Assembly: GCA_973895155.1 (NCBI GenBank)
Contig: OZ316894.1
Span: forward strand, 12,192,828-12,256,827
DNA: 64,000 bases
Source of the DNA: Marsupella aquatica
Lineage: Eukaryota; Plantae; Marchantiophyta
Direction of reading: 5' to 3'
How positions within the stretch are numbered: position 1 is the first letter of the stretch; every line of letters starts with the position of its first letter. Made by a program: the position numbers and the translations under genes. Under the pieces are notes generated by a model. It made no database searches and had not been told where the DNA came from. It worked only from the letters and a program-made list of their open reading frames with translations. This document shows, in pieces, positions 6,592-42,928 of the stretch.

Positions 6592-7183
6592 AGGCACCAG
6601 GACAGACGACAGGCCTTCCAAAGTGAAGATAGGCCTTCCAAAGTGAAGATAGCAAAACAAGAAATTTAATTACTACAGCCGCGGTAGGAGAAGCACACTC
6701 CACATGACTAGCCAGTGCTCAAGTACCAACAAGGTACCATTAAGTGGTTCCCTGATGGAGCTACTGTACTTTACTACCAGTCAGGGCTACAGTGAGGCAT
6801 CTAATCCTATGAGGCAAGCTAAGCTCATGGTGGGTGGGGGGGGGGCATGGTACCTGCAATCTGTCCAAATGAATTGCCCAAAGACCTGAGTAAGCACCAC
6901 AATCAAAACACATATCTAAGTAGGCCTTTGTTGTTGTTGATTTCCCAGCTTGGATCTTAGCACAATGTTTGGCCCAATCCTTTCTAAGATAAACTCCTAG
7001 TCAGTGCCATGATTTCCCAAATAACAATATGAGGATTGGACCTAGTGTGCTCAATGAAATGAGAGTTACGGTCCTTCCAGATTTTCCAGCAGACCCGTAG
7101 GGTATGTCACATATTTTCAGTGACATCCCACTCTTCAGGTCAGGGTTTAGCAACAAAAAATTGAGTTGGCTAAAGATGCAGAG

Positions 7184-7526
7184 TGTTGAGCATAGACGAC
7201 ACTCGTAACGATAAGCACATGACACATCCAACGCGCAAGTAGTCGACACAAGAGATACGTGGTTCACCTCCTTGAGGCTACGTCCACGGGAACACACAAG
7301 AGAGCTTTACTGAACTCTAAGCCTGTCGACTATACCAAGTCTCCACAGTGTAAGCTCTCCTCATCTCTCAAGTGGCCCCATAACAATGAGCCTAAGTTCC
7401 ACTTATCCAAGCAAACACCGCTTGACATATAGTGTGCATCCTAGTTAACCTAATCACATCTCCGACTACGGTTAGTCTAACTATGGTTATATGTCGTAAC
7501 CCTAGACCTTGAGTAAATACCTAACA
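7184..7526 (-). repeat. 3' LTR of copia element
   Basis: 343 bp; adjacent to the PPT. Confidence 0.96.
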
Positions 7527-7537
7527 ATCTCCCCCTT
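7527..7537 (-). other. Polypurine tract
   Basis: AAGGGGGAGAT on the minus strand immediately upstream of the 3' LTR. Confidence 0.9.
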
Positions 7538-7718
7538 GACTCTGGTCTAGGGGAGGGTAATACTGCTAACCTATATGATTCCTCAGCGGGAAGTTCTGGA
7601 CAAAAACCAACATGGTTTCCCCTCTCTAACTAGAGCAAACCAGAACTAAGCCATAGCCTATTACTAGGAGTGAAGAAGAGCATATATCAGTAATTACAAC
7701 GAATGTTAAGAAAAACCC

Positions 7719-10700: not shown

Positions 10701-12000
10701 AATTACTCGCCATTGATGACCATTTGTATCCAACACACCGAATGAAATCAAATTCTTACGCATGCCAGGTACAAACCTGACTCCGGACACTGTGCGCACA
10801 ATGCCATCAAACATTTGAATTTTTACAGACCCAATACCCTCAACTCGACAGGAGTGATCATTTCCCATCAAAACTGAACTGTTTGACACAAAATAAGAAT
10901 TGAAATACTCGCGAATGTAACAAATATGAAAGAAGCAAGCACAATCAAGAATCCACACATCATTTTCTCTCCTAGATGATGTGCATAGGGCATACTCTTG
11001 ATTTCATAAAACATACTCATCATTGAGTAAATCAACTTCTCCATCATCACTAGCCACATTGGCTGATGAAGATTCAGCTGCCTTATCCTTACAATCCCTC
11101 TTAACGTGACCAACCTTGTGACACTTCCAGCAGACTACTGGCTTTCTCTCCTGGGACTTCCCCCTTGAAGCAAATCTTGTCCTAGATTTACTTCTTCCCA
11201 TGCCCTGCGTGCGCTGCTCTTGACGCTTTTGTGACCTCCCACGATTCACATTCAAGGCAGCACCAGACGATGATGATGGCTGAGAGGGCATGGTCAATTT
11301 CTGCTGCAAGTCATCAGTCAACAGAGCACTTACAACTTCATTGTAAGTGATAGTCTTCGTGTCACGATGAAGCAGCACTCGTGACAATGACTGATATGAT
11401 GAGGGTAAAGAGCTAAGCAAGTGAAGAGCCTGCCGCTCATCACTCAAATCCTCCCCCAAATTTTGCAAATCAACGACCAGGTCGTTGAAACCATCGATAT
11501 GGTCTTGAATCTTTGCACTTCCCTCCTTCATCTTGAAGCTCATAAGCTCATAAGCTTCAAAGATGTGTAGAGCCGATTCGATAGCTCCTTTTGATGGTAC
11601 TTTTGCTCCAACGTGGCAAACAATGATGCACAATCGACATGGTCTGCCAACTGCTTGATGACATTAGGCTGAAGATAGAGCATCATGGTGCTCACAGCCT
11701 GCTCCTGCATGTCCTGCCAGTCATCTTATCGACATCATTTGGCTGGTCCTTCAGCAATTTCCCAAGCCCGGTTGCACGGAGTACCCCCTTCACTTGTCGC
11801 TCCCACAACAAGTAGTCTGTGCGGCCATCGTATTTTGTAACCTCAAACTTGGGACCTCCAAGCTTGATTGTCCCCATCCTTTTTCTTGTCACTCGCCGTA
11901 ATACCGGTGACCACAATTCTGCTAGATCTTCCGTTTCCTCCTCTGTTCTCTCCGGTGACTCAACAAAACCCTCCTCCAAGTCACTCATGTGAGAAATCAA
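7719..12000 (-). pseudogene. Copia gag-pol, broken by stops/frameshifts
   Basis: Gag with CCHC knuckle CWKCHKVGHVKRDC (11004-12000); protease WILDCACFFH with degenerate DSG (10623-10958); integrase LWHSRLGH..CEHC, SFIDDYSR, PQQNGVAER (9828-10574); RT YKARLVAK, LYGLKQSPRQW, LYMDDM (8565-9815); RNase H GYVDSD, STTEAEY, CDSQSA, KHIDVRYHF (7719-8513). Confidence 0.96.
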
Positions 12001-13365
12001 GAAAAAATGACGTTTTTCTCAACTTCTCAAAAAACTCAAAAGTTATCACCGCCACTTAGCCCACGAGCCTAGCTTTCCAACGCTGAAAACCAAAATCAAA
12101 ACCAAACTCCGACGTAAAAGTTATTCACTTTTCGGTCGGGGTGGATAAAACTTGGAATTCTCCCCCGTTTTGACCAAATCGAGGAATAACCAACATTTGA
12201 ACTAGTACCCGACGTCGGAAATGCAATTCAATTTTTGCACCGCGTTGCCAACTCTGATGGCTAGCAACTTGCCGAAGATGAACGAAAAAAGTTACCTTTC
12301 GGCGGACAAAATCTTTGACGGACGGACAAAAAATAGCTCTCTGGTTTTTTGGAATATTCTATGACCCTTATACAAGCCCTATGGGAATTTTGGAAGAACA
12401 ATCGAGGGGCTGACACGTGTCCTCGAACCCCCAAAACCCCCTACCACCCTTCGTCATCGAAATCTGGTCGTGCGCGCAGAAAATACACACGGCAGAATGT
12501 ACCCCTCGACACCAAACGCAAGATATCTCACTCGTGTTTTGACGAAATCAAGATCTGATTTCAGATTTGGAAACTAGACTCTGAGGCGGTGAAGATAGAT
12601 ATAAGAAGCACCCAAAACGAGGAAAGAACGAGGGAGAAAAAAATTGGTAAAGATGATAGATTTTTCTCAATTGCCATAGCCAATTTCGAATCAGTTTTTC
12701 AAAGAGAAAAAATGGTACCTTGTCAACAATGAATGTTGATGTATTGCACTTGGTGCCGTCACCAAGTCCAACAAGGTAATTGATTTCGCTTAGCCTTCCT
12801 CTTCGCATCAAAGAGCCAATCCCGGACTCACAATAATCGTCTTGCCTCAATCTCTCCGTTGAGTCAAAACACTTGACGCTTCTCCCTCCAAGTTGATTGC
12901 CACGACAGGAAACCCCGCTCAGGCAAAAGAGGACTCCATAGCCGGTCAGAAAATCAGAATGCTTCTTTTACTTGTCCCGTCGCACACGGTATTCACTTGG
13001 TAACAAATCAGCTACCAAAACAAACAGCTCGTCCCGATCTACAAGCAGAGCTACAGCATGCGATGCCTCCTTCGCCGTAGAGCTCACACCATTGAGAAAA
13101 AAACTCTGGTCCCTCCTCCAAAAAACCGTCGAACACGAATATTGCCGACTTTCTTCACAAAATCCAGAACGACAAAAACTTAGATCTCTCCGCACCACGA
13201 GCTCCGTTCAGCGATTTCTTCACACCGTTAGAAAGCTCTTGCCCCAATCTATCCGTTGAGCCCATAAACTCCAAGTTCCATGCGACGAAACTCCGGGAAA
13301 TCCACCGACACTCAACGTTGGAAAAACTGTCACGAAATCCCGTCACGAACACACGTCCCAGGCAT

Positions 13366-13377
13366 GCTCTGATACCA
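13366..13377 (-). other. Primer-binding site, initiator tRNA-Met
   Basis: TGGTATCAGAGC on the minus strand, 2 nt inside the 5' LTR. Confidence 0.95.
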
Positions 13378-13379
13378 AT

Positions 13380-13720
13380 TGTTGAGCATAGACGACACTC
13401 GTAACGATAAGCACATGACACATCCAACGCGCAAGTAGTCGACACAAGAGATACGTGGTTCACCTCCTTGAGGCTACATCCACGGGAACACACGAGAGCT
13501 TTACTGAACTCTAAGCCCGTCGGCTATACCAAGTCTCCATAGTGTAAGCTCTCCTCATCTCTCAAGTGGCTCCATAACAATGAGCCTAAGTTCCACTTAT
13601 CCAAGCAAACACTGCTTGGCATATAGTGTGCATCCTAGTTAACCTAACCACGTCTCCGACTATGGTTAGTCTAACTATGGTTATATATCGTAACCCTAGA
13701 TCTTGAGTAAATACCTAACA
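13380..13720 (-). repeat. 5' LTR of copia element
   Basis: 341 bp. By manual alignment it differs from the 3' LTR by ~12 substitutions (all transitions) and one 2-bp indel. Confidence 0.96.
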
Positions 13721-21201: not shown

Positions 21202-24179
21202 TGATGTCACTCCGAGGGCTTAGGTCTTAACAATCTCCGGTAAGCAAAGATTTGGCTAGTGTTGGTCTCATTTGCATGGTTGTGTGCACCAGTTTAATAA
21301 TACCCTGCACATCATGTTTGTGGGAGAAGCTATGGTTTGTTGCTTGCAGTTCATATTGTAATCATTAGCATTAGGCCTTGTGGTTGTTTCATGTAGATAG
21401 AATGTGGTTGCCATTGTCCTGTGCGAAAGATTTGAGCGCCCTTCTAGTAAACAGGAGAACTGGCTCTCGTTTGGAAGCCACTGTCAACAGTTGAGCTGCA
21501 TTTGACCATGAAAAGAAGCATTACGAAAGAAGAATTAAAGGACTGAATGGGATCGATAGAAAACATCTGTTATCCTGAGCTTTGGGGAAGTCAAAGGTGA
21601 ACGATTAGAACCTAGGCAAGAAGAAATGTCTTAAGCTCCAGTCCAGGAACCTCAAGCAACAAGGAGTGCTTGAAACTAAGTTCTAATGAAGGAAGCGTAG
21701 AGGTACCCAGAATCGTTACAAGTTCTAATTTTGCAATTGTTCGTGTCTGTGATGAGAGGAAGAACCTTAGATCTCTTCAAGATATGCAGATTGACAGAAG
21801 ATTTTGAAGGTACCCGAGAGTCAAAATCGTCTGTGAAAATGGTCTTTGTGTGGAAGATAAGACATTTGTCCTGTTTACAATCGGAAAACCAAATCGAAGT
21901 CAGAGATAATATTCTCCGACCTTTTATTGTTTCAATACATGCTTGGGAGGAAGATGAAACATAAGTGCTATTCGCAACCCCCAAAACAAAACAAGGAGAT
22001 CCTGTGGCCCTCTATCGTTTCACACGACATGCTTGTGGACTGCAGGGCTAGGGCTAGGTCTAGTTTTAGTTTTTGAAGTAGAAGAGACGGTGTCTCAAAT
22101 AAATTTAAAGACCACCGCTGCTCAAACCTGGGGGGTGTAGAGAAAACAAAATCAAGAAGCCACATCACGTTTAGATTTGTCACATGTTGTGTCATAATGA
22201 GAATTTAAGGAATTGAGAATGTGGCTTTAAGCTGAAGCGTTGGTGGTCTGAAAACCACAAACCAAATTGATGATTTAATGGAGAATGTGGACACCAGAGG
22301 GAAGAAGCCACTACCACCAATAAGGAAATGAACCCAGAAACTCTTTGTGGGGAGTGTGGACAGTGTGGAGAGTTTGAAGGGTTTTAGTAGTTTGAACTTA
22401 TTGTTTGGGTGTCTTTATTGTAACTGAGAAGGGCAAACCCAGATGAATTGTTGAGATGAAGGGAGGTGGACTTGTAGTACTATAGCAAGCTTATCTTTCT
22501 TGCAAGTGCAATTGGGATTAAGGAGTGGAATGAGTCAATCATGCTCATTCAACTAGTCAAGGGAAGAAAAGTGCTAAAGAATTGATTCCCCTACAGTCTC
22601 CAATGTGACTGTTGGAGAAAGAGGGATGTTGATTGTCGCTCTTATGAAGACTATTGAAAAGTGGTTATTGTCATGAGGTGATTATTCAGGAAGAGCTGTT
22701 GGTTCCAATGGGTGATTGGAGAATCTGACGGCTACATGAAATTAATAGAGTTTTATGTGATCAATCATATTTTCTGCTCACCCATCCGCTCAGACATCTC
22801 TCAGACATCTCTTAAATACCCTTTCTATCTAAGAGTACACTTCACCAAGCGTAAATGTCTCAGACATGTCGTACCGTTTCTGTCTAAAAATACACTTCAC
22901 ATGCATAAACATTGGCGCTTATGCCAACAACATAACAATTTGATACAGTTTTCAATAACCAATTTACATAGAGAAACATGTTTTAGGGGGAAAACCTTAC
23001 TCTTCTATAGGTGAAATTTGTGAAATGGCAGCAGATGTTTTGTACCTTACAAAGGAATCTGCGAGACCCAGCTGTTCCTATCTACCGTAGGTGAAGATCC
23101 AGAGCTCTGGTGATGATTTGGACATGGTGGATAACCCTATTGATTTCCAAGGATAGAAAGTACAGGCAATTACAGGAAAGTGTATTGGTCCGTTTGTATA
23201 TTGTGTGCAATGCACAGGTTTTTCCTTCCAGACTCAAGCTTGGTTTCGGCTTGCCTTGTAGGATTTTTTCCAGTTTGAAGGATAATTGGTGGAACTGGCC
23301 ACCATTTCCCCCCCAACTTAGGTTGTCTAAGTCGGCTTTCTTTCCACCAGAGTCTACAAAATCGTGAAATTGAAGCTCACATAAACCCTCGTGTTAGACA
23401 AGATCCTCAGATAGACCGTGGCAGCTGACATCACAACTACATTTTGACTCAACTTAACGTTGCCTCACAACAGGCTAATCTCGATGTATGAAACTCTAAA
23501 CGGAAACACAGAATCCCCAAGGTAAAATTGGCAACGTTCTGGATGTCTAGATTGACGTGGTTGCTTACGTCGTCTCACACGACGCACATTGCCACACCGC
23601 CAACGTGGTTCTTTGTGGGCACGACGTCCTATGCATCGTTAGAGTACTGGGCTAATGTAGATTTCCATGTCCATTAAACGTCGCACGAACTGACGTTAAT
23701 ACAAACAAAATGCCGTGATTGACGACGTTGACTCCCTCGTATAAAACAATGTTAGTTTTTGTAACGACGTCGGGGACACCGTTACGTTTGATGTAATGTG
23801 AATTCGTTCATTGGTTTACGTCATGTGATAAGACGTTGTTATCATATATCGATGTCATGAACGACGTTGTGTGAAAGTGGAAGACTACGTCTGGGTCATA
23901 CCTTGTGAGAAGCTTGGTAACTTTATGAATGAACGACGCCCCGTATATTATGCCGGACCCTGCCATACAACCTTATTGGAGGTTATAAACACACTTAAGC
24001 TAGGGTTACAATGGGGTGAGCATTATTTGGGTAGGCAGTTGGGGTTTAGGGATACACATTCAATATGCATATGGTATAGACGTTGTAATTCACGAAAAGT
24101 GTCATATTAGATAATATTGTTATGGGCCAAATATGTACAAAATGGAGGATGAAGTCGGGCAAGTAAAATAGGCTATACC

Positions 24180-26353
24180 CTAGTCACGCTCAGTCCGCCT
24201 GGTATCACGTCCAGACCTGCGTGTAGAAGTGGGTTGTACGCCTCTCGGGCGCAACTCGTACCTGGAGTCATCCTCCTCTAAGCTAGTGGTACTGGGGGAC
24301 AACGTATCTGCCTGTGTTGCAGCCCTATGAGTAGTCACTGGCCTACTCCCCTTACTGTGTGGAGGTCGCCTAGTGTCATCCCTCCTCCTCCTCTCCCTCT
24401 CCCTCTCCCTCCCCCTCCGTCTATCTGACCTATCTCTCCCTATCTCCCTCTCTCTCCCTCCCTCGGCTCTCTCTCTCTCCCTCCGGCCTTGGCCACTAGT
24501 ACGCCCCCCATGAGTCTCTGCCTCCTCCTGCCCGCAATCTACGTGAGCCTCCTCCTGCAAACCCTCCTCGGGCGGTACCCTGGCTAGCAAGTGATCCTCA
24601 GGGATGGCCCATGCAACCAAGCCCTCCGGAGGAGTCCAATCCTCCACCTGCATGATAGCATTCTGGTCAGTTAATGTCACAGAGTAGGCCTAAAGTCAAC
24701 TACAACCTAGCAATCACTTTAGCTCTTACCCGGTGATCCTCCGGGACTGAGGCCAACTTGGCCCATAGCGCTGCCGGGCCATACCGTTTCGAGTACAGCC
24801 GCTCCTCCTCCGACGGCTCGGCATCGACACCAAACTTGCGTTTCTGCGAGAAAGCAAAAGAGCGTCGTTCCTAAGCACGTATTCAACCCTCTCAGCATCG
24901 GTGCTAACGTTGTTCCATGCGTTGCATATCTAGTTAACGTCGCTCTAACGACGTTTTCACTAAAGCAGTACATGTAACGTCTCAAGGACAACGTTCTTCC
25001 TAAGGTACGTCTCAGATGAAGTTACAAAGCAAATTTAACGTTGTTATGGACGACGTTATGAATGAATCAGGCGACGTAATTTCAAAATCTCGACGTTACA
25101 CTATGGTTTACACCGGAGCAGCGAAATGAAAACGTGGAAGTTGGGTCCGAGACTTACGTAGGTTGCGAGGAACCCTCGCCATCCTCCTTGCCCCCAGAAA
25201 TTGGTTACTAGAAGGCGTCCGCTATTCTTTCGAGCTGTAGTGGCTTTGTCACCCATGTGCACTCGTTTTCCTACTGGGGTGTCTGGGGGTGCTTCAAGTT
25301 CAGACACGATCAAGTTGAAGTCCGACTCGGCCATCCCTTCAGGCTTACGGTACTGCCCTGTCTTCTCGCATTTCATTGCTCGGACCTTGCTTCTCCACCT
25401 GAATCTTCTGTCAGCAAGGTCAACTCACAATCTTCTGCCTGATGTGTCGAAAATCAATCTCTCTGCCATTCTTGAATCCGGCCTGTATGTCATTGAGGAG
25501 TACTTGAAACTTCTTTGTATTGTGCACGAGGTCCTTCCAAGTCGTCCACCCAGGGCAGTGTTTCGTACAGCAGACCTGCACTCGATTCGTTAGCGCCTTC
25601 TCATCAAGCACCTTTGGCTTCGCATCAAAAGCAGCCAGGCTGATGACCGGCAGTTGTTCTTTGCTGGCAGGAGTAGCAACGGTTCGGTGAGGAGAAGCTC
25701 ACCGATGACCTCCTCCGATTGAATGTGAATGTCGAGGTGACCTTCGACCTCTCCTATCTCTGTCCACCCTTGAATCTCGTTCAGCCCTTTTTCTCTTGTG
25801 TGTGTTGCGGCTGTCTCTTTCTCTGCGCTCCTTTCCCTTCCCCTTTTTTTTGTCTCCTCTCAATGCTACTATTGCTACTCAAAGAATGGGAACGACGTCG
25901 CCTTCTGTGTGTCCGCAACTCTGTACTTGAATCATCAGGCTCATATCTCTGAATCCTCACTTGGCTCTTGATGGGAGTAACACAGGGTGGTTGTGAATCC
26001 GGCTCCATCCCAGAGAACGAGGGATAGTCCCAGACTGAGTCCATCAAGGGCGGGAAGGAAGCAAGAGGATCAAGTGATGCCCCCGGAAGGTCGCGCAAGA
26101 ACTCTGGTGCTTGAATGTCGGGCTCAACGTCGGATGCTGGAGCGTTCTCTTCTATGTTCTGAAGGTATTCCAGAAATCGTGACTCCTTCGTCCCAGTTCC
26201 TCCCATGAATTGCCAACTCTGATTGAAAGCATCAATCAGTGAATGTGCTGACCGCAAAGCTGTTCGAACCTTCTCCACCTCCTCTGGGTCTTCCATGGAA
26301 ACTTTCGCAGCATCAAAGTTGATACTGAGGGGCAGATAAGCTGGACGTGACAT
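24180..26353 (-). pseudogene. TnpA-like (Transposase_24/Ptta-type) gene, divergent from tnpD, disrupted
   Basis: Putative exons 26353-25158 (RS-rich, then RRFRWRSK..PEGMAESDFNLIV..KATTARKNSG..NFWGQGGWRGF), 24843-24730 (KRKFGVDAEP..) and 24647-24180 (acidic/RE-rich), with GT-AG junctions. Exon 1 has frameshifts and a TGA. Confidence 0.6.
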
Positions 26354-26871
26354 TGAGGCAAGACTTGGAGCAAATGTAGATGACCTTCACAAAGATTAGA
26401 GCTTCACTAGAGCTTCACTAGAGCCACAAACAGAACAAAACACTAGATGTGGGGTGAGGTGTGTGCGGAATGGTCGAATGACTCACATTCGACACTATGC
26501 CCCGGTATTTTCCGAATAGAATGCGGCAGAGTTCGCAACAATGTGTTTCCGCCGTTCTCTATCTATTTACGTCGTTTTTCACGATGATGCCCTAATTGAT
26601 CGATTAGTAATACGTTGTGCTAGACGACGTTTGCATTTAAACCTTGTTCTGTACACCGTTAAAAGGTAGGGTTTACTGTAACGTCGTGTGGGGTACGGTA
26701 CATGACGTAGGGTTTAAGAAATACGTCGTGTATTGTGTTCTCGGCGACGTAAAGTGAAAGTACTTCGTTTTACTTGACGTAAATATTGTGGTACTATAGT
26801 GGTCTTGACGTTCCATTTCCAAGGCTGAGTTTGCAAGTTTGCGTGTATATGTGTGTATACTATTGCAGGCC

Positions 26872-27390
26872 ATGGCCTCGTGCTCATCGGAGTGGTCATC
26901 TGATGATCGCTATGATGGAGGTGCACATCACCGAGACAGGTACCGCTCTCATGATAGGGGGAGGGAGAGGAGGAGGGAGCACTCACCTGCCAGGTCGAGA
27001 TACCACTCAGCCGAGAGGAGGAGGGACTTATCATCTGATAGGAGCAGGCACCATTCGTCTGAGAGGAGTTGGGATCAGTCTTCAGATAGGGAGTACCGAT
27101 CTAGGGATCATCAACATCGGGAGCGACGAAGGCATAGGAGGTCCCATCGACAGTCCCACCGCCACCGCCGGTCCAGGTCTCCCTCTGATGACCACACACC
27201 CCGACACCGATCACCCATGCCGGAGGATGAGGATAGGTTTGGAGAGGCCATGGCTGCCCTTCAGGGGATTGGCCCAGTCCGAAAGATGCCCTGCCCATGT
27301 AGTAGATGCAAGGGCGTCGTCTCCCACGAGAGGACCACTGTCCTTAGCCATTTAGGCCTCCACGGCCGTTACGTACCCCTGACACATCAG
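26872..27390 (+). CDS. Shared first coding exon: RS/RE-rich region plus transposase-associated Zn-binding domain
   Basis: ATG at 26872, 173 codons, phase-0 donor CAG|GTAATT at 27390/27391. CPCSRCKG..RTTVLSHLGLHG matches the CPCxxC..V..HL...G N-terminal domain of CACTA transposases. Confidence 0.85.
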
Positions 27391-27540
27391 GTAATTCATA
27401 AACCTTTATTGACACTATTCAATTCATTAAGTCCTTATTTTTGAATATAACATGTTTGGGTTTCTTGAGTTTTCTTGAGTGTTTAGTTGGAATGGTTTTT
27501 TCCCTGATTTCTGAAGTTCTCTTGTTCACATGTGAAACAG

Positions 27541-28360
27541 ATTTTGTGTGTGGTCTCTCCGCCCTTGGACCACATGAGACAGGTTGCACGTCGCGCGCTC
27601 ACAACACTAGTTCCCCCATCAGCACTCGATGCCACGTTAAGGGCAATAGACCGTGTTTTTGATAGGAGGAGGAGGGTCATACGGAGTCACCCTATTGAGA
27701 GGGGAGTAGAGGTCACCACTAGACCTCGGTCCATTACGTCTCGTATCCCTAGGACGGTGCCGCCACATTGTCCTTTTCGTGATGCCTCTTTTTCCCGAGC
27801 ACCAAGAGAGTTAAGAGGGAGAGCCTTGGACATCATAAAGGACTCATTCCCAACCCAGTTTGGCCTCCCTATGGTCCTGCTTGTTCGGGAGCCTATTGTA
27901 GTTTGGGATAGGCCATGGGTCCTCCTCCCATCCACATTGGGACCAGACGTAGGTCTTGGATTATTTGCACTCATGGATATTGTGGTGCCGGAAGGTTGTG
28001 CACCTGAGGACCTGCCCGAGTTGATTCCATTTTATGGGCCAAAGTATTCGGCCCATAGATGGCGTATCTTGTCTCGCCAATGCCCAACCTTTGGTCGGTA
28101 TGGCATGTCACTAAAGTTGGACCCTAGGTATACTCAGATGGATGCATGGTTACCCCCCTCGTACTGGAAACTTGGCGGGTTACATCAATAGCATAGTGGG
28201 CTGTCGGCATTTGGGGTTCCGCCCCAACGCTGAGTGGCATGAGTACCATGACCAGAGTCACCCTCGTTTGCCCTTGGGATGCAGTCACTACATCCTGACA
28301 CATGCCACCCGCACCATTCGAGCAGGGGATGAGATATTTGTAGACTATGATTGGCATTGA
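27541..28360 (+). CDS. SET-domain (lysine methyltransferase-like) exon inside transposase intron 1; one 4-nt frameshift
   Basis: Acceptor AAACAG|ATT is in frame with exon 1. Motifs: PSTLGPDVGLGLFA (GxGLFA), FYG, GNLAGYINS, PNAEW, ATRTIRAGDEIFVDY. Removing the GCAT at ~28144-28147 joins ORFs 27532-28191 and 28142-28360 as QMDGYPPRTGNL. Confidence 0.85.
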
Positions 28361-28503
28361 AGATTATATATGTTATTGATCACTTATTCATTACTCAGAG
28401 TGAGACTTATATTGGATTCTTTGACCTTCATTACCTCATGCACTATTGGGAACACATTGTCTAATTTGGGGATGACCTTATCTAATATTGACGTCTTGCA
28501 TAG

Positions 28504-31500
28504 GATGGTCCAAATATAACACCTACACCTCATCCATCGATGATGACGGAGTCAGCCCGTTCGTTCCACATGCGAGCCACATTATCTTTTTCTGACGACG
28601 AAGATGTTGAGAGTGATCATGTGCATGAGGACGAGGATGTGGACGAGGATGTGAATGAGTACCATGATGCACATGATGGCGATTTTGATGAAGATGTAGA
28701 GGATGATATGGATGCACCTATTCTTGAAGAGGATGCTTTTGCGCACCTTGTGGACATCCGCTTTGGACCTCATGTACCTGAGGGTGACCCTCCTGTCATG
28801 GAACTAGACAAAGATGATTGGGACCAATTGGAAACTGAATCCAGGACTCCGCTATTCCAGGGTTCCCCGATCTCACGGTACATTTCTCTGAGGTGCTATT
28901 ATAGTTTTTCTACTGTAATGTTGCTTAAGGGTGTGCATAAACCCTAAGTCCCCAATTGGACCATCCTCAATGGCATGCCTTAAACTAATTAAAAAGCTGG
29001 TTTCTTTGTGGTTTTCAATGCAAATGCAGGTTGGGAGCCACACTCTTGATGTTGAATTTACAGGGGGTTTTCAATGGATCAGATGTCCATACAGATGCAC
29101 TCTTTGCGTTGTTCCACAACAAACTCTTGCCTCAACCTAACAACCTTCCAGGATGTGTGAGGGAGGCTAAGAAGTTGTTATCATCTATCGGACTGGCGTT
29201 AGAGACTATACATATGTGCCCTCATGGGTGCATCTTGTATAGAGGACCCTACTTGGACCTCACCCATTGCCCAATTGAGCGATGTGGCCTTCCACGGTAT
29301 CGTCCTGATACCATTGGAGACAAGATTGCTGAGAAGGTAATGACATCCTTCTGTACCACATCTGTATTTTAGTATTTTTTGACGTTGCCCTCGTGAGTAG
29401 TACGTCTTTCAACTAGAAGTAAATACCCCTAACGTCTCCCTTGTGATTTTTACGTCTTTCCATATGACGTTTTTTAGTCCAACGTCGATGTTTGCACCGT
29501 AAAAGTTTAGGGAACGTAGATCTGCTCAACATGAAACAATAACGTCGTTCTGGACAACGTTCACTTTTAGGATACGTAGTTATGTTCAATACAGAAGTAA
29601 TACGTCGTATTGAACATCGTAAAGATTTTTGGAACGTAGTTATCATCAACATATTTGTGATGTTAACGACGAAATGCCGCCTCATGGTTGTTGTACATTC
29701 AGGTACTGAGGTATTTTCCAATCACACCCCGATTGCAGCATCTATACCGGCGAAGACACCTATCCTCCCTACAGACTTGGCATGCCGAGACCAAATCCCC
29801 AGCAGGGATAATGCGGTATCACCAAGATAGTCCAGCATGGAAGCACATTGATGCCACATGGCCAGATTTTGCTGCAGAGCCACGGAACGTTCGGTTGGGG
29901 TTGGCCATAGATGGGGTAAACCCATACAAGCAGCGACGGAAACCAAAGTCCATTTGGCCAGTTCTTTTGATAAATCAGAACATCCCTCCATGGTTGGCGA
30001 TGAAAAAAGGTCATGTTCTCCTCCTAGCTATCATTCCCGGTCCCGAGGCTTGCAAGAATCCAGATGTTTGCTTGGCCCCAGCTTATGAAGAGCTACATGA
30101 CTTGTGGGAAATTGGGGCTCCAACAACAGATGTCACCCGTGCACCGGACAATGGGAGGACATTCAACATGAGAGTCATGATCACCCATTGCACCACTGAT
30201 GGGCCAGGTAATTCAAAAACCTTACAAAATGTGATTATATTGTGCTAAATGACTTTATGTCTTCATTTGGCTTCTTTTATTGTGGGAATATGATGGGGTT
30301 TCTTTGGCAGGCATGGGCACAATATCAGGCTTGAAGGTGGCTGGGTACTCAGGTTTCCCTTCATGTGGCCCTGAGTTGCATGGGAGGTACTCAGTACTAT
30401 TGCACAAAACCACATATGAGGGCAGCAGGATGAGATTGTCAATGGATGACCCCATGCGATGTAACACAAGACATTGGGCACAGACTGAGTTAAGACCATG
30501 TCCTAATGCGCCTTCAGCAGAAGCTCAAATTCACATGGCAGAGATGGTGGAGGCTAAGCTGCTGAAACCCAAAGATTGTGGAGTAAACCGACGCTCAACA
30601 TTGTGGGACTTGCCTTATTGGAGGGTAGGTACAATACACCTATCAAATGTTGTGTATAGATTTTTTCATCAACTCTCATAATGCTAGAGTTTTTCACTTG
30701 ATTACCATGTTGTGCAAGCAGATGCTCAAGATCCGGTGGCTACTGGACCCCATGCACATTGAAGTGAATGTCGCAAAGAATTTGGTGAATCACATGTATG
30801 GTGAGAATGATACTCGTGGAGTTCGTGTGAATGCAAAGAATGTAGGAGTTGTGAAGAGCTATTGGATATCAGGTACATGATAAAACATAGATCAACCCTT
30901 AATTTGTAAGAAGTTGCCCAGATTTGCCTGAAACCCCAAACCCTAACAAGTTGATTCTCTTTAATTATTGGACAGCACGTACTGGGGTGACACCACCAGC
31001 CCCTTGGATTTTGCCTCGAGACATTCTGAAGGATGTGAATGGGATGATTTGTGAGATGAAGTTCCCGAGCCATTACGGAGCTGGATTCCGTGGGTGCACA
31101 ACGAGGAATGAGTACATCCCCCCGATAGGGTTGAAGTCCCACGATTATCACAAGTTGATACAGCATGTGCTCCCTGCAGTGTTGCGTTGTTGCGATGATT
31201 CTAGAGAGCGCCACCTACTCCGACTCACAATGTACGAGTTGTGCTCCATTTTCAGGTTGGAAATATCTTACTCGTGGATTTTGTGGTGTTATGGGACCAT
31301 AAATTTATGGTGTCTCAAACAACATTCTAGAGAGGATACGTAGTCTCTTAATACTTTACGTCGTCTATAACTAGGTAATGTAAAAATATGATGCCCCATA
31401 CGACGTATTCAAGGTCGTATAAGTCACCCCTCTTCAGGAACGTCCTACAGAGCGACGTTTGTAGGAATCTTAGTAGAGGGAATGTTAGTAGGCATTGAAT

Positions 31501-32762
31501 TGGTAACCATCTTAGCCCACTTTCAGATTGGGCGGTGATATTTATTCCTGTCATGTTTTTGAGTGCCTCATAGGTGGGTATGTGCCAAGGAGATCAAGGA
31601 GTCAGAGATTCCTTTGATGAGGGAGAGGACGGCGCAAGTGATGTGCAATTTGGAGCGAGTGTTCCCCCCAGCACTGTTTGACATGCAAATGCATTTGCTA
31701 TGTCACCTGGTGGATGAAGTTGCCATTGCAGGCCCAGTCCATGCCCGATGGATGTATTGGGTTGAGCGATATATGAAGGTGCTCAAGGGTTGGGTGCGTC
31801 AACCCGCTCGACCTGAGGGAAGTATGGCAACAGGGTTCATTATGTCAGAGTGTCTTTTCTATTCCGGGGGGGTGATAGGGAGTTTGGATAGCAAAGCTCC
31901 CACAACTTGGGAAGAGGCACAAGATGATGACAATGGTGGGCTGCGATTGATGGGTGCGGCCAAGAAGCGATCATTGGATGATGACATCTTTCGTCGACAG
32001 ATCCATAATTATGTGTTGGGGAATCGACCGGAGATGTCTGATTGGAGGGAGATGTATAGGTATGGTACTCTAAAATTTTAATCGATTGTGAATTGGATTT
32101 GAGAAGGCTGCAAATCTCTAACAATCTTGTGACAACGTATTTGGCAGTGCATGGTTGGAGCTTCAAGTGGGAGTTGCGCAAGCAGGTCGTGGCATTGCAT
32201 CATTTCGTGTCTGGGCTTTGGAGCGCATGGAGAGCTCTTGGCTGTGCATGGGTCTACATCCATTCCCATTGATGTACAAAACATCATTAGAGGGCCAGGG
32301 ATGCGGGCCACGACTCATACACACATGTTTGAGTCAGGGCATCACTTTCGGACTTGGAGGACAGACCATATGAAGAAGAGTACTTGTAACTCTGGAATCT
32401 TCATGATGACTGATGTAGATGATGTAGAGGTTCCTTATTGTGGGACAGTTGTGGACATTTTAGATGTTCATTTTGGGTCATTTGTCACCACTGTACTAGA
32501 GGTGAGGTGGCACAAGTCGATCATGTCACCCCTAGCGAGAGCTACGATGGTTGCGGATGAGTGTGGTTTTTATTGCGTGGACACAACCCGAGTTGCACCC
32601 ACAGGGACTGAGTTTAGTGACACCATAGTTTTTCCTAGCCAGGTGGATCAGTGCATTATGGTTCCGATGCAGACCATGAGAGGATGGTCCATTGTCATAC
32701 CAATTTTCCCTCGGCGAAGGAAGGGCTTCATGGCATCAGTCCTTGCAGACGATGCGGACTGA
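28504..32762 (+). CDS. TnpD-type CACTA transposase (Transposase_21, DUF4218, DUF4216-like), exons 2-9; one apparent 1-nt frameshift near 32230
   Basis: Phase-consistent GT-AG exons 28504-28877, 29030-29336, 29703-30207, 30311-30624, 30722-30872, 30976-31255, 31574-32059, 32148-32762. Motifs IHMCPHGCILY, VLRYFPITPRLQ, DSPAWKHID, RNVRLGLAIDGVNP, LDPMHIE, GLKSHDYH, FDMQMHLLCHL, RWMYWVERYM. Confidence 0.93.
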
Positions 32763-33398
32763 CACTATCCTTCACACCCTCCATTTATATGTATTGGCTA
32801 TGCCCACCTTCCACATATATATTGACATATGTTTCGACGTTTGAGATCTGGCAAACTGGAGGGAGAGTTGTGCAAAGTTTCTTCTTTCCTCACTTTATAG
32901 CTAAGAACACATTAAAAAGCATTAAACCTCGGCCTTCGAACAACCTTCAATGGGTCCTAGCACGTAAACCCTTATCACGTAGGCCAATTGACACTTCGAA
33001 CTTATTAACGTCAACCTCAACGTCATTAGACAATCAAAGGTCGCTTATACCCATAATGAAGATGTTAATCTATAGTTACGTCATAAATACATTGTACAAA
33101 CGACATATACATAGTACGTCCTTGGTTTACCGCGTAGTAGAGGACGTAGATTGTGTTACCGTGTCTTAAACGACGTAAACGTTTATTTAACCATTCTTCT
33201 GATGACATTCAAAGTTTCAATCGACGTTACTCACAAAACACATTACAAATATAAATTGCCTGGGAGGGACTTTTTATTCATGCGCTCAGAAACATACAAT
33301 GTGCACATAAGGCATGAGTCTGACTCCAGTCTAAACTGATTCCAATCCTAGGCAAATGATGCTCCTCCGTCTCCAGCTGACCTTGGCACTAGTGTAGC

Positions 33399-33958
33399 TT
33401 AAGGGGTCCCTTCACCAGACCAGTAGTACTCCTCATCTGCCTTCCTCTTTTTGTACGAATCATGCCTATTGCTGGCATTCCATTTCTTACGGACCACTGC
33501 TTCACCAACCTTCAGCCTTTCAGCCTCTATCTCAGCTGCACAGCTTTCCTTGTAGTCATACATCACAATATCAAGTTCAGTCGGTGACAACTGACATTTA
33601 GCCAACTTTGGTGGACAAGCCTCACCATCATCATCCTTGGGCGTATCGTCCAGCATCAAATCGTCCCCTGGATGCAGCAAAAACTCTTCTGGGTCCAACT
33701 CCTTATTGCCCAGAATGGAGTACTGTACCCAAAAAATCGAGATGAATGCACGGACTCTGCAAAGTGCTCGATCAATCCAGGATAGTCACTGAAGTGCTCT
33801 GTGACTTGTTTCCAGGTATTGGCAAGCAAGTATTCCGTCTTTGAGTTACAAAACTTGTCTATCACACCTCCACGACAAAAAAAGCCACGAACAGTCTTGT
33901 CTTCTTCACCTAGCGGAAGAAAACAATAGTGGACATCCTTGAATATCTTACGCACCAT
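33399..33958 (-). CDS. Orphan accessory gene inside the CACTA element (~185 aa if a 1-nt frameshift near 33705 is repaired)
   Basis: Overlapping ORFs 33656-33958 (ATG start) and 33399-33698 have protein-like sequence, an acidic stretch and a KKRK NLS-like motif. Convergent with tnpD and inside the TIRs. Confidence 0.55.
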
Positions 33959-34470
33959 AGCTGAAGACTTTCAATCTCACTCTGCAAATTCTGTGCACTA
34001 TCGTACCCGTAGGACATCTGAAATCACGAATGACCTGTGCAGTGAGGTCCCAGTAGCCTTGCCCCAAAAACTCCCGCAAAAAACCTTACGCATGCCAATT
34101 GGATTCCATTAACGTCGTTGCCCACATTGGTCATATACGTCTAACATCGCCCAACATCCATTATACGTCGTCATAGCATAGTATCCGTTATAGCCACGTC
34201 TGAAACGACGTACATCTATACGTCGACCCAACCCTATTCTGCTACACCGTCTGGGACGACGTCTACATGTTTGCCTCGTTATAAAAGACGTTAATAGCCC
34301 TATTGGGAGATACGTTAAATTAAAGACCCTCTAGAAGACGTAAAATGGGAAGGAAAGTCAAATGGGTACACCCATTTTGGGTTACGACGTAGAGGGAGAT
34401 GTACTGGGGAGTAACGTCGTGTCACATGATGCGAAAGGAAGTCACGACGTAGTGAAATGTAGTTGTGCAT

Positions 34471-37630: not shown

Positions 37631-40600
37631 AAAGAAATATACACACTTTTTATATACAAAGGGACCAAACAGAGTACAAATGAACAAACAAAAGAGGGCC
37701 CAAGTGGACAAAACCAATCGAAAAAGAAATGAGCAAAAGGGAACCACTAAACACCAAGAAAGAGGAACTAAAAGTAAGAAATGAACAATAGGGAACCCCT
37801 AAAAACCAAGAAAGAGAGAGAGACTAAAACTAACCCAAGCGGACCGAGGTCCTCATCATTCCTACCGATTGTGGCAAAAAGCTAATGGTCCACATCAAGA
37901 GTCAAAACTAGATCGGCAAGTGGGATTGGAACATCCTCAAGGGGAGCTAGCCGCTGCGGAGGCACACTAGCACCCACTGTAAGAGATCGACGATAGATGG
38001 CCCGAGCTTGAGCACGCTGTAAGGTGACTGAAATGCGTTGGCGAAAGTGCGTGGTCAAAATAGAAAGCGGGGGTCCGGTGGGACCCATTCGGGCATGAAC
38101 ATCCCGGGCAGCTTGCCGAAGAAGCCCATCAAACTGAGGATGAAGACGCCCAAATAGCTCCACAGCAAGGGGGAGGAAGCTGTCGGATGAAGCTCGTGCA
38201 GCATATTTGGCCTCCTTCATTGTTGCCGCACGTGACGCTGCTGCCCCTGCCATAGTTGCCGCTGTCCCAATGATGTCTTGGCGCAATGGGTTTGCCACCA
38301 CAACATCTGCCAAAGTACGTTGACCCTCACGGACCATGGTAAGATCCACCCGTAACCGCTGTGATGGAGGACCAGGTAACTCGAGTACCACCTCCCGCCG
38401 CACGCATACCAAAGAGCCAGAGAGAACCTGAGCAGTCGCATCTCGCACAGCGTCGTGAACAATAATGGTTTCACCTCCCAAACTGCACCGAAGAAGATGG
38501 ACACCTGTGGCATCACAAGGCTTCCCACAAGTGCAAGAAGGAGGTAAACCTGCAAGAAGTGGGTGGGGCAGCCCCAGACGAAGACGCATGGCTGTGGAGA
38601 ACTCCGTTGAAGACATCCGCAAATGAGGAATGACTGGATTGGCCTGAAGCCATCCACCTGCGCCCTTCCCTCCAGAAGAAAGAATCCGAGCTCGGTCCGT
38701 GTCAGGTGCCTTGGAGAGGATGCTGGAAAGGGTGAATGTGTGCATACGCCCAGCGAGGTCTGCCTGAAGACGAACGGGATCCAAGGATAAAAACTCCTGA
38801 AAAGAAGGTAACGAGGCATGAACGGGATCTGGTAATGAGGACCGCGCTGCGCGCAAATGAACCTGAAACGGGAGGGAACCCTCCTCTACCTCCATGAGAG
38901 ATGAAAGTAAAAAAGGGCGATCCTCAATAAGAAAACGATCGGCCAACAACGAGAAGGCGGCCGCCCATGCACCCAAAAAGGCCAAAGGTGCAAGGCTCTC
39001 AATGGAATTAAGCCCAAAACCACCCTGCGAGATAGGAAGACTGAGTTGTCGATGAAGCCACGAAGATGAGAGCAACGTACCCGGACCTAAAAGAGAGGCC
39101 AGGGTCTGACGAATGGAGACATCAAATGCTCGAAGGTGGAGACAAAGATCCTCGGTAGGGGGATGCGTCCTAGCCAGATAAGACGCATGAGGGTGGATGC
39201 ACCTCAACAACATCCCAAATGTTGCCTGAGAATCTGCTAACTTAGGGAGCATAGGAGTATGGGCTAAGGCAGCCTGTATAGAGTCAGCGATGAAAGATGA
39301 GCAAAAGGAGGCGGTACCGACTGGGGAGCCAAGGACCCGAAGACCATCGGCTGGACGTAAGAACCCTGGGGGAAGCACAAGATCAGAGGGTAACCCAGCT
39401 GGACTCCATGCACGACTCTTCACAGGCTGAACTCGTAAACTGAGGCCCATCAAATGGGTGGAAAGAGTGGCGAGGGCAGAAGTAACCGCGGCAGGAGGAC
39501 CAATGATGTGGGTGTCATCTGAAAGGGAGGGGAAGATACACTGGGGGTGGGCCATGGCAGCTTCCCGTAAAGCTGTAAAATGGGCAATGGCAAAAAGAGG
39601 CCCACCCAAAGGGTCACCCTGACGTGTACCTTCTGCAGAGGAAAGAGTGGTATACACACCTGTAGAGGAGTGATGACTATAGAAGAGTGGGGCCTCGAGT
39701 CCATAAAAACAACGGACAAAGGGGATCAGGGACTGGATGTCTGGATCCGCCGCCCTCAAAGCACGAAAAATGGCTGCCCGAGAAACCGTATTAAAAGCGT
39801 TAGAGACATCAACCTGGAGGACAACCCAATCAGGGTGGAGGTCCAATGTAGCTCGAATACCCGCAATAACCGTCTCACAACCGCCAGGAACGCCAACTGC
39901 AAACTGATGTGGAGAGAGATGATCCGATAGTGCAGAGCGAAACTGTGAGGAAAGTGTGCGAGACACAAGACAAAGAAAAACCTCCCCAATAGCAATTGGC
40001 CGAACACCCGGTGAAGACTTAGCCATGGCCAATAAACGAGAAGCACTCAAGAGCCGAGAGACGGGAGGAGGCAAACGACCGGCTGCAATACACTGGCAAA
40101 AGGAGAAGAAAACTGGAAAACCAAACTGAGGATCCTCAAGGGGGAATAAATCACGAAAATGCTCAAAGACATAGCCGGAGGGGCCACCAGCAGAACAACG
40201 TGGGGCATGGAGGAAGGCATAGGTGAAGTGGTCCCTACTAAACTGAAGATCCTCATCAGGCTCAAAATCCTCGACAAACAAAGGGAGCTGATCATGGGGC
40301 TGCGGATGGAGATCCTGAAGGGCCAATGAGGTGACCTCGCCAGGGGGGGCTGGTGTGGTGGGAGAAAGGGCCTGGACAGCCCGACGATATTCACCAGCCT
40401 GGGCTAAACGACAAGAGCGACGAAGACGTCTATGCTCAGGGGGATGAGAGTGGCGAGCTGGGTCAGACAAAGCACGGGCGGTAAAAGACCGGGCGCGAAG
40501 AAAGTACTCTTCCTGAAGCTGCTCCCAATCTCCCCGCAAAAAACGATGGATACGAGAGGCAGTCTCACGGTGACCCACACGACCACCATGACTAGGGAGG

Positions 40601-41560
40601 GTAAGAGTCCACTATGGAAAAAGCATCAGTAAAGACCAATAGGAGACCTCCATAGGATGCGCCAAGATAAGCTGCATGAGTTGCAACAAGGAGGACCGAA
40701 CTATAGGGCGCAGCGCCAGAGGAATGTGGTTATAAAGGCGAGGTCTAATGTACCCTGGATGGTAGGCTGGAAGGGGGTCTAGAGTGCGAACCCAACTCCA
40801 TGCCTGCTCGGGAGCCTCCAAGGAGGGAGGGGCAGAGCTAACCGGGTCAATAGGGGGCTGAGGCTGGGATTGTGCTTGTTGGCGACGATGGCACCGGCCC
40901 CGCCTGCGATGATGAGGGAGGGAGATGCCAACCCATCCACAGTCAGGACAAGTATGCAGGGGACGCTCGTCCGGGGAGGGAGCAGGGAAAGACTGGACAG
41001 GAGGTGGGGGTGGAACAGATGTGGACGAGGAGGCCGGAGGAGGATGATGAATGGGTGGAGGGGGAATGGGGTGGGGAGAGGAGCCAGGGCGACGATGGGG
41101 TGGGCAGTAGACGGGGGGGACTGGCAGAGCATCGGGCATGGGATCATCACGAAGATCCAGTGAAGAAGAGCAAACACGAAGACGGCCACGAGGGGGAGGG
41201 GAGGACGGGGGAGAAGTGTGGGGTGGGGCTGGGCGCTTGCCCCGCGCCAACACTCTCAACGTAGACATGACAGGCCGCAACCCGATAAAAGCAAAAACGC
41301 ATCAAGAAGCGACAAAAGGCCCAACCGAGGCATGTGAAAAGAAAGGGGAGGCGATGGAGAGAGCCCACCGCATCAGGTCGAGAAACGGCACCACCGCTAG
41401 CCTAGGAAACCATTGAGCAGGTGCAGGAACAGTAAGGAACAAAGCTGAAACGCCCGTCGATCTGTCCGTTGGGGAGTCGACGCGAGTGAAGATCCGCCCT
41501 CTAGATTGAGCGTGCGGCAACAGCTCCCGAAGGCAACAACCAATTGGAGGAGAAGCGATG
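37631..41560 (-). mobile_element. CRE-like non-LTR retrotransposon with restriction-like endonuclease (5' boundary uncertain, may extend to ~42616)
   Basis: Single long frame ZnF-RT-CCHC-RLE. The T-rich 3' UTR (37631-37881) is shared with copies at 55472 and 62336. Confidence 0.88.
37882..41268 (-). CDS. RLE retrotransposon protein (~1128 aa) with one in-frame TAG at 40612-40614
   Basis: ORFs 40612-41280 and 37882-40578 share a frame. N-terminal CPDC..HHRR..H Zn finger; RT GVRPIAIGE, DVSNAFN, GTRQGDPLG, LSDD, VLGSPVG; CTC..H...C knuckle; RVD..ADV..KEAKY and PLAVELFG endonuclease motifs. Confidence 0.9.
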
Positions 41561-41562
41561 GC

Positions 41563-42390
41563 CTAAAGCCGATGTGACTCGCTCATACGTTGCCCCAAAT
41601 CGAGTCGTGGAAACGCCAAGATCGCCAAACGCGCAGCCAATGTGAAAAAACGGCGAAACCTAAATCTGATGAAACTCGCTCAATTGGTGACCGTTTGAGG
41701 CGCAATTCATATCGATCTTCACCGTCTCGCCAAGATCTTTCCAAAGCCGTCAAGAACACCCAGATCCGAAACTCCTGGAGAAAGTTATGACCCAAATGGA
41801 GTCGCGAAATCGCCAAAATGGTCAAACGCGCAGAAAAAGTGAAAAAACGGCAAAACCTAAATCCGATGTAACTCGTTCATAGGGTGACCGTTTGGGGCGC
41901 AAGTCGTATCAATCTTCACCGCCTCGCCAAGATCTTTCCAAAACCGTCAAGAACTCCCAGATCCGAATCTCCTGGAGAAAGTTACGACCCAAATTGAGTC
42001 GCGAAATCGCCCAAATCGCCAAACGCGCAGAAAAAGTGAAAAAATGGCGAAACTTAAATCCGATGTAACTCGCTCATACGGTGACCGTTTGAGGCGCAAG
42101 TCGTATCGATCTTCACCGCCTCGCCAAGATCTTTCCAAAGCCGTCAAGAACTCCCAAATCCGAAACTCCCGGAGAAAGTTACGACCCAAATTGAGTCGCG
42201 AAATCGCCCAAATCGCCAAACGCGCAGAAAAAGTGAAAAATCGACGAAACTTAAATCCGACTTAATGCGCTCATACGGTGACCGTTTGGGGCGCAAGTCG
42301 TATCGATCTGCACCGCCTCGCCAAGATCTTTCCAAAGCCGTCAAGAACTCCCAAATCCGAAAATCGTGGAGAAAGTTACAACCCGAATTC
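41563..42390. repeat. Tandem array, ~198-bp units, ~4 copies plus a partial one
   Basis: GGTGACCGTTTG.GGCGCAA.TC.TATC.ATCT.CACCG.CTCGCCAAGATCTTTCCAAA recurs with a ~197-198 bp period (unit starts ~41667, 41864, 42062, 42259). Confidence 0.93.
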
Positions 42391-42928
42391 AGAGAGACAT
42401 CTCGTGCGCTTCGAAGTCTCTCCAACGAAAGCAGCCAAGACTTTGTTTTGGTATCACTTTTTGTTTTGACTAGCTTGAGATTGTCGTTCAGTTAATCTCT
42501 TCTCTCATAACGACAGCCTTTGTGTGAATCCATTCAGGAGCGAAATGTAATTATTTGAGGTATTCAGACCGGTGCAGGTGCCGTCCCTTTGCCGCATCGA
42601 CGACATTTCCAAACATTTCCAAATGTTTCCAATTTTTCCACAAAGTAACCAAAATCTCCTAAGGAAACACAAGAAGAAACTCGGAGTCCCCATCCAACCA
42701 TAAGAATACTTTTTGTGGGGCTTTCTACCACTAGTTTTTAAGTTACAACAATTTTCTCTCCTTTTCTTACAATGGGGAGAATTATTTTAATTAGAAAACA
42801 GTACCATTTGGTAATCAGAAAAAAACCCCCCAAACACTATCATACACATTTTCCCATTTTGAAGACTTTGATGATTTGGTTGATGGGACATTAGCTATTA
42901 ATCACACATTTTGCAGATTTGCTTGATG

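Follow-up and report, generated by a model that had tools for sequence, protein, structure and literature searches.

A compact SET-domain exon within the transposase unit of a CACTA-type transposon in the liverwort Marsupella aquatica

The liverwort Marsupella aquatica carries a CACTA/EnSpm-type DNA transposon in which a compact SET domain is encoded by an exon of the transposase unit. The copy analysed here is broken by a short insertion, but the SET exon is under purifying selection and sibling copies of it are intact. A YINS sequence in place of the canonical NHS, a very short tail after the terminal tyrosine and a lack of cysteine-rich flanks are not peculiarities of this copy. They are family-wide traits, found across about 130 protein clusters.

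The transposon and its predicted exons

The region analysed (the window) is a stretch of 64,000 nucleotides from contig OZ316894.1 of assembly GCA_973895155.1 (positions 12,192,828 to 12,256,827 of the forward strand), and all coordinates given here are positions within it unless stated otherwise. The features of the element are collected in Table 1.

Table 1. Features of the transposon and of its SET exon, in window coordinates
Feature	Position	Strand	Remarks
CACTA/EnSpm-type DNA transposon	23432..34467		11,036 bp; terminal inverted repeats and target-site duplication, Transposase_21, DUF4218
Target-site duplication CAT, 3 bp	23429-23431 and 34468-34470		flanks the element
Left terminal inverted repeat, 13 bp	23432..23444	+	begins CACAA, not CACTA
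Right terminal inverted repeat, 13 bp	34455..34467	-	matches the left repeat perfectly
Dispersed ACGACGT clusters	23554..34450		termini, promoter region, introns
Divergent second multi-exon gene	24180..26386	-	1-nt frameshift near 25425
Predicted exon 1, 173 codons	26872..27390	+	Arg/Ser/His-rich basic tract and CPCxxC zinc knuckle
Predicted GT-AG intron 1	27391..27540	+	sequence-based; phase the same in the related locus L001
SET exon	27541..28360	+	~90-residue basic extension, ~30-residue family-specific arm, SET core, three-residue tail, own stop
Motif I GLGLF (GxG, SAM binding)	27952..27966	+	second Gly in 67/71 non-redundant members
PFYG	28027..28038	+	Phe at the aligned position of LegAS4 Tyr135 (lysine channel); 70/71 members have Tyr or Phe here
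4-nt frameshifting insertion	28144..28147	+	missing from sibling contigs
GYINSI	28178..28195	+	Asn codon 28187-28189; Ser where canonical NHS has His
Catalytic Tyr of terminal motif EIFVDYDWH-stop	28346..28348	+	aligns with Tyr220 of LegAS4
Transposase exons	28504..32762	+	acidic exon, Tnp2/Transposase_21, DUF4218, C-terminal parts

The element has the hallmarks of the CACTA/EnSpm group, with short terminal inverted repeats starting CAC, a 3-bp target-site duplication, and Tnp2 (Transposase_21), DUF4218 and Transpos_assoc sequences. The order of exons is a zinc-knuckle exon, the SET exon with its own stop codon, and then the transposase exons, in which Pfam matches Transposase_21 with an E value of 1.6e-38 and DUF4218 with 7e-30. 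No stop codon interrupts any of the eight transposase exon segments checked. The knuckle of exon 1 (~27283-27366) is Transpos_assoc-like, matching PF13963 at a level below the cut-off (E 7.5e-4).

The pieces of the minus-strand gene that were tested gave no match to Pfam; we take its pattern of Trp and Gly residues to resemble that of TnpA-like DNA-binding proteins. Short minus-strand reading frames are also present at 33470-33990, close to the right terminus of the transposon, and the piece of these that was tested had no Pfam match. Elsewhere in the window there is an LTR retrotransposon at 7175-13720, presumably of the Copia type from its motifs, with LTRs that are ~95% alike and in-frame stops in pol. 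At 37882-42484 the minus strand has a long frame for a reverse transcriptase (RVT_1, E 6e-8), with a 197-bp tandem repeat upstream.

The exon 1 donor (GT at 27391) is in phase 0, as are the acceptors of the SET exon (27540) and of the acidic exon (28503). Identical exon order and the same three phases are found in a related locus, L001, the one locus obtained from 58 candidates in a pattern-limited scan of metagenome contigs, and 44% identical to the family query. Because one phase-0 donor fits both acceptors, and because this layout is repeated in L001, we predict two splice forms, a knuckle-SET protein of 444 residues and a knuckle-transposase. We note that an in-frame GT is also present at 28340, just ahead of the codon of the catalytic Tyr. 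Three relatives (P0068, P0125 and P0131) pass from the last strand of the domain into the acidic transposase segment at the matching place, and have no terminal Tyr. Taken together these hint at a further, Tyr-less form in which SET and transposase are fused, or else they are artefacts of the gene models.

The window has 25 copies of the sequence ACGACGT, against an expectation of 2.15 from shuffling of the whole window. The element contains 24 of these copies, 23 of them in its non-coding DNA, for which 0.74 would be expected on shuffling. The element thus has clusters of a family-specific short motif, as do systems of the TnpA type. Subterminal repeats in Spm serve transposition, and the ACGACGT motifs could equally do so. 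In Spm elements of Arabidopsis, clustered motifs of 8-10 bp define the targets of anti-silencing by TnpA (10.64898/2026.08.24.746577), and by analogy the ACGACGT clusters match this logic. Candidates for their binding partner are the knuckle, the transposase and the product of the minus-strand gene. In L001 the upstream non-coding DNA (positions 1-190 of that locus) carries repeats with an ACGT core spaced by 21 bp (at 91, 112 and 133), so the core of the motif may be common across families.

The SET domain, its family and its outside relatives

Within the SET exon the family-specific arm begins at ~27811 and the SET core extends over ~27904-28348, with the stop codon at 28358-28360. The initial annotation had proposed a minimal and atypical SET domain at 27900-28360, and each of the features that it described can be read in the sequence. 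The domain ends three residues past the last Tyr, Cys clusters of the pre- and post-SET kind are absent on both sides of the core, and Ser takes the place of the His of NHS. The exon is intronless, aligning contiguously over 27541-28360 to 19 homologues, the close relatives found in the first search. The canonical ELxF/YDY signature with its catalytic Tyr is present, reading EIFVDY. By contrast the NHS/CxxPN signature lacks its His and has the form NS[STCV], while retaining the Asn and the later PN; a PNAEW motif follows GYINSI. The Pfam SET profile (PF00856) matches the native second half with an E value of 1.9e-4 and the exon read through with X with 1.1e-3. The scores of 19.8-22.2 bits lie just below the gathering cut-off of 22.4, which several relatives pass. 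The SET part contains 15 Lys and Arg against 18 Asp and Glu residues, and is not strongly acidic.

A search of 1.84 billion representative proteins gave 131 matches at E<=0.001. Two were dropped as non-family, P0146 being repetitive and P0167 a canonical NHS SET protein, and the remaining 129 look like members of the family. A wider profile gave 87 matches, and one longer protein was added from a separate search. Organism names were found on 10 of the 30 clusters looked up, six from Riccia sorocarpa, three from Calypogeia and one from Ginkgo biloba. The nearest named relatives are from Calypogeia fissa (56-58% identical in the core). The Calypogeia protein CAM6082854.1 is an intact family member. 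In trees drawn within the family (71 of 223 sequences, with no outgroup) the window copy lies near P0003, P0004, P0012 and two Calypogeia copies. Pfam SET is matched at E<=0.05 by 80 of 112 members. The association with transposases recurs; according to Pfam, three Riccia gene models fuse the domain to Transposase_21, and tblastn matches another one to the transposase of the window. In eight proteins, four of them from a clade distant from the window, a knuckle precedes the SET region in one chain. The Ginkgo protein P0129 (Gb_21150) is 25% identical over 164 columns. Its N-terminus is rich in Cys and His but does not resemble the knuckle, and this copy may have been domesticated or may have a different linkage.

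The position of the canonical His is occupied by Ser in 64 of 71 non-redundant members, and His itself is found in just one of the 155 sequences of the full set. The residues expected to be important in catalysis are by contrast retained. Gly140 of GxG is present in 67 of the 71, Tyr187 in 68, the SAM-binding Asn216 in 63 and Tyr or Phe at 164 in 70, while the terminal Tyr269 is present in 61 of the 64 members that cover it. Over the 191 columns of the alignment the median conservation is 0.37, and these catalytic positions rank among the highest. The tail after the Tyr has a median length of eight residues and is 10 residues or shorter in 67 of 109 members. Neither the window copy nor the family has the post-SET segment that closes the cofactor and lysine sites.

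The fold was modelled using P0011, a relative that is 63% identical to the window copy in the core. The AlphaFold2 model, based on 112 sequences, has a pLDDT of 95.9 and a pTM of 0.90; an earlier model from a shallow alignment (pLDDT 50.8) was left out of the analysis. When the P0011 model was compared with the PDB using Foldseek, all 44 structures listed were SET proteins (TM ~0.50-0.57), and the domain is predicted to have the SET fold. LegAS4 of Legionella ranked first, at 23% identity and an E value of 4.2e-7, and SET8 came next at 1.5e-6. Viral models were similar, with E values from 5e-7 to 1e-4 and a best match at 5.2e-7 and 20% identity. Searching solved structures with the family profile set LegAS4 well apart, with an E value of 8e-9 where the next protein had 0.0045, and a second profile search gave 1.3e-7 for LegAS4 against 0.0028 for the next. 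Eukaryotic SET structures were at 0.003 or worse throughout; in the first of these searches MLL1 was at 0.005, ATXR5/6 at ~0.01, EZH2 at 0.012-0.05 and SUV39H2 at 0.28. The chlorovirus vSET was not among the 60 listed of the 71 profile matches. A single-sequence search of the PDB gave one chance match, and a profile of 19 sequences one weak SET match (E 0.84). The NCBIfam model NF043024 (LegAS4/RomA, AnkI) weakly matched 4 of 42 members (best E 0.001).

LegAS4/RomA shares with the family the lack of the His, the lack of Cys-rich flanks and the positions of the Asn and Tyr. It differs in being a secreted bacterial effector of 23% identity, with a cSET helix and an ankyrin reader that are both absent in the family; no ankyrin repeats were found in the domain. 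SET8/KMT5A, vSET and other compact viral SET proteins resemble the family in being compact and free of zinc sites, but are only 13-24% identical to it. SET8 and vSET keep the NHS and have a longer C-terminal lid. In the atlas, a divergent member has compact SET proteins from haptophytes, phages and large DNA viruses as its neighbours, which is no more than a lead to the origin of the domain.

With LegAS4 standing clear in the profile searches and the host classes giving weak E values, we reject the idea that the domain was recently captured from a host SET class. The window copy has neither the Cys-rich pre- and post-SET or CXC flanks of plant SUVH, ATX, ASHH or CLF proteins nor any close similarity to them, and no recognisable host SET class appeared among the matches from the representative scan. 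This agrees with the initial annotation, which had argued against a recently captured SUVH, ATX or CLF fragment and had suggested either an old transposon-specific lineage or a viral or microbial source. The lineage is indeed transposon-linked, and old in that the family extends to 25-28% identity in Ginkgo. The second part of the suggestion fared less well, since the nearest outside matches, LegAS4 and compact viral SET proteins, are only 20-23% identical and SET8 is nearly equal to them by Foldseek. Pattern-limited scans of viral contigs, prokaryote genomes, phages and plasmids, which see close relatives only, gave no sequence relatives. From the sequence comparisons, a microbial or viral ancestry of the domain is possible.

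The broken copy, its siblings and selection

The insertion of four bases at 28144-28147 throws the sequence out of frame, so that the exon of this copy ends at 28191, ahead of the Asn and Tyr motifs; the truncation had been correctly recognized at the outset. The region 28141-28147 reads ATG-C-ATG. This could be a 3-bp target duplication plus one base, the form of the footprint left by excision of a CACTA element, the alternative being replication slippage.

It had been proposed that raw reads and sibling copies be checked at this place. It is covered by four runs (X1 to X4), coming from two studies and one of them possibly the source of the window, while a fifth (X5) does not extend over it. 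The four bases are missing in siblings from three of the four. Expressed as contig depth, which is not copy number, insertion-free contigs account for 252 of 327 in X1, 801 of 1181 in X2 and 1467 of 7382 in X3, and for 0 of 607 in X4 among the contigs listed. Some of the insertion-free pieces are near-identical to the window, with only three other differences. The contigs from X1, X2 and X3 rule out a frameshift common to every copy. Neither of the two outcomes named beforehand as contradicting the initial annotation, this one and a tight grouping with a host SET gene, was observed.

The differences between copies were examined over 27870-28370. Among the 40 best-supported of the 120 listed, 25 are synonymous and 15 non-synonymous, one of the latter being an alignment artefact of the insertion. 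For these 40, pN/pS is 0.18 (p 1e-7), with 112 sites counted as synonymous and 371 as non-synonymous. Six other rows with 1-nt indels in the SET stretch make up three compensating pairs.

Selection bears directly on whether the SET exon might be neutral cargo, a captured fragment of a host SET gene that is now decaying. This copy is frameshifted, and some relatives such as L001 carry stops, as such decay would produce. Yet the low pN/pS, the intact siblings, the lack of a close host SET and the equal position of the domain in elements of distant plants all stand against it, and we regard decay as highly improbable.

Catalysis and possible function

The initial annotation considered catalytic activity to be uncertain, in part from the missing His. 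That ground for doubt is weakened by LegAS4, an active enzyme that trimethylates H3K14 (PMC10653858) and yet reads YINFS in the profile alignment, so that its His is missing too. SET domains hold their cofactor through backbone contacts from five atoms and through the side chain of one Asn (PMC3178901), and the side chain of the His should therefore be dispensable in principle. We reject the idea that loss of the His means loss of activity, given an active LegAS4 and cofactor contacts that lie elsewhere. An inactive allele of LegAS4 has been made by changing six residues (10.64898/2026.05.29.728679). On mapping these by a constant offset, Tyr159, Asn181 and Tyr220 are identical in the family and Tyr135 is Tyr or Phe. 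LegAS4 Ser158 and Tyr231 have no counterpart in the family, and the position of Arg178 is Gly. The doubt that stands comes from the missing post-SET segment, for truncation of post-SET in PRDM constructs has been tied to a lack of activity (PMC3178901). Moreover LegAS4 requires its ankyrin domain in order to bind H3 (PMC10653858), and the grooves that accept histone tails are described as electronegative (PMC3178901). On balance we think it probable that the SET family catalyses methyl transfer on some substrate. To a histone substrate with an anti-silencing effect we give a little less than an even chance.

Since siblings lack the break and relatives keep most of the key catalytic residues, we suggest that the element may well use its SET protein to mark chromatin. 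In the reading that we tentatively favour, though stopping slightly short of even confidence, the knuckle-SET protein would be an active lysine methyltransferase that marks the element's own copies against silencing by the host. Splicing of the SET exon to the zinc-knuckle exon 1 would give the 444-residue accessory protein as an alternative to the transposase form. This would methylate a protein lysine, presumably of a histone, at the chromatin of the element. The missing post-SET lid might be supplied by a partner, by the N-terminal arm or by the nucleosome, and targeting might be achieved by the basic tract and knuckle, or by a partner that binds the ACGACGT clusters. By analogy with TnpA and VANC, the outcome would be that the element is held off from silencing.

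The substrate might alternatively be a non-histone protein, with an active enzyme that tunes transposition by methylating the transposase or accessory protein of the element or a silencing factor of the host. The family keeps its catalytic residues yet has no post-SET lid, reader domain or acidic surface, and SET proteins are known to methylate non-histone targets (PMC10653858). In addition, the SET form and the transposase would be made together, as exon 1 is predicted to be common to both. We nevertheless think a non-histone substrate unlikely, if deserving of some weight; the basic N-terminal tract resembles the basic segment with which LegAS4 binds nucleosomal DNA (10.64898/2026.05.29.728679), and the motif clusters suggest an action at the DNA of the element. 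A minor chance must also be given to a protein that transfers no methyl group, but has SAM or a methyl-lysine tail as its ligand and serves as a decoy, a scaffold or a shield against SUVH or PRC2 of the host. The inactivity of PRDM constructs with truncated post-SET (PMC3178901) would fit with the three-residue tail of the window copy, and the subclade without a terminal Tyr, together with the GT at 28340, points the same way. However, the Tyr, Asn, GxG and channel aromatic residues are kept down to 25-28% identity, and a dead domain need not keep them.

An active histone methyltransferase need not be anti-silencing. It could write a repressive mark, like vSET at H3K27 or RomA at H3K14, and so limit its own element or shut down neighbouring genes or defence genes of the host. 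The closest solved relative, LegAS4, writes the repressive H3K14me, PRC2 and H3K27me3 silence transposons in bryophytes (10.1101/2022.10.24.513474), and the channel Phe of the window's subfamily could favour higher methylation states through a Tyr/Phe switch (PMC3178901). The similarity to LegAS4 is however only 23%, vSET is absent from the listed profile matches, and the known accessory regulators of transposons activate their elements (10.64898/2026.08.24.746577). A repressive mark thus seems distinctly unlikely. Returning to the marking of the element's own copies against silencing, its fullest version would have an old land-plant CACTA lineage, extending from liverworts to ginkgo, take up a LegAS4-related SET of microbial or viral type as a splice isoform of its transposase, for ACGACGT-guided histone writing on its own copies. 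Taken as a whole this is rather unlikely. If true, a transposon would here encode a histone writer that is targeted by sequence and functions in the absence of a post-SET lid.

Other DNA transposons carrying SET genes have been described. They include HarbingerS and MuDR elements of Phytophthora (PMC12730594), and Helitron captures and the accessory gene PAG2 of red-algal Plavaka elements (10.1101/2025.02.11.637652), and their SET proteins are proposed to be chromatin modulators (PMC12730594; 10.1101/2025.02.11.637652). The present element differs in its land-plant host, its Tnp2-type CACTA transposase, the placing of SET as an exon within the transposase unit instead of as a gene of its own, and the lack of an adenine-methylase domain, a comparison with HarbingerS, MuDR and PAG2 that is drawn from published descriptions. 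The elements that carry VANC belong to a different superfamily from CACTA, and VANC is not known to have a SET domain. It is however an element-encoded factor, from VANDAL (MuDR) transposons, whose action is on clusters of a motif within its own element family (as cited in PMC12730594 and 10.1101/2025.02.11.637652). In the TnpA-TnpD system of Spm/CACTA, alternative splicing of one unit gives a transposase and an accessory protein, with motif clusters in non-coding DNA, and the same is predicted here (10.64898/2026.08.24.746577). TnpA itself is a tandem-HTH DNA-binding protein that is reported from flowering plants only and is not known to have a SET domain, whereas the predicted accessory isoform here has the fold of an enzyme. 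A land-plant CACTA/EnSpm element with SET, in bryophytes or gymnosperms, is not described in the literature searched, a body that excludes Repbase Reports, most subscription journals and bioRxiv supplements, and none appears in the available part of PMC11982613. New here are the measurement of selection together with the intact siblings, the replacement of His by Ser throughout the family, which an active enzyme parallels, the Ginkgo member and the motif clusters. One practical consequence is that many liverwort gene models named 'SET domain-containing' are parts of transposons.

TnpA and VANC are known as sequence-specific anti-silencing factors that lower DNA methylation, and transposons with SET genes have been described from sequence in oomycetes and red algae (10.64898/2026.08.24.746577; PMC12730594; 10.1101/2025.02.11.637652). 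A SET family on recently active liverwort CACTA elements makes the idea of self-written histone marks testable, and transformable models exist. Such work would show whether a SET domain functions when both the His of NHS and a post-SET segment are missing, and it could yield an epigenetic writer that is compact and targeted.
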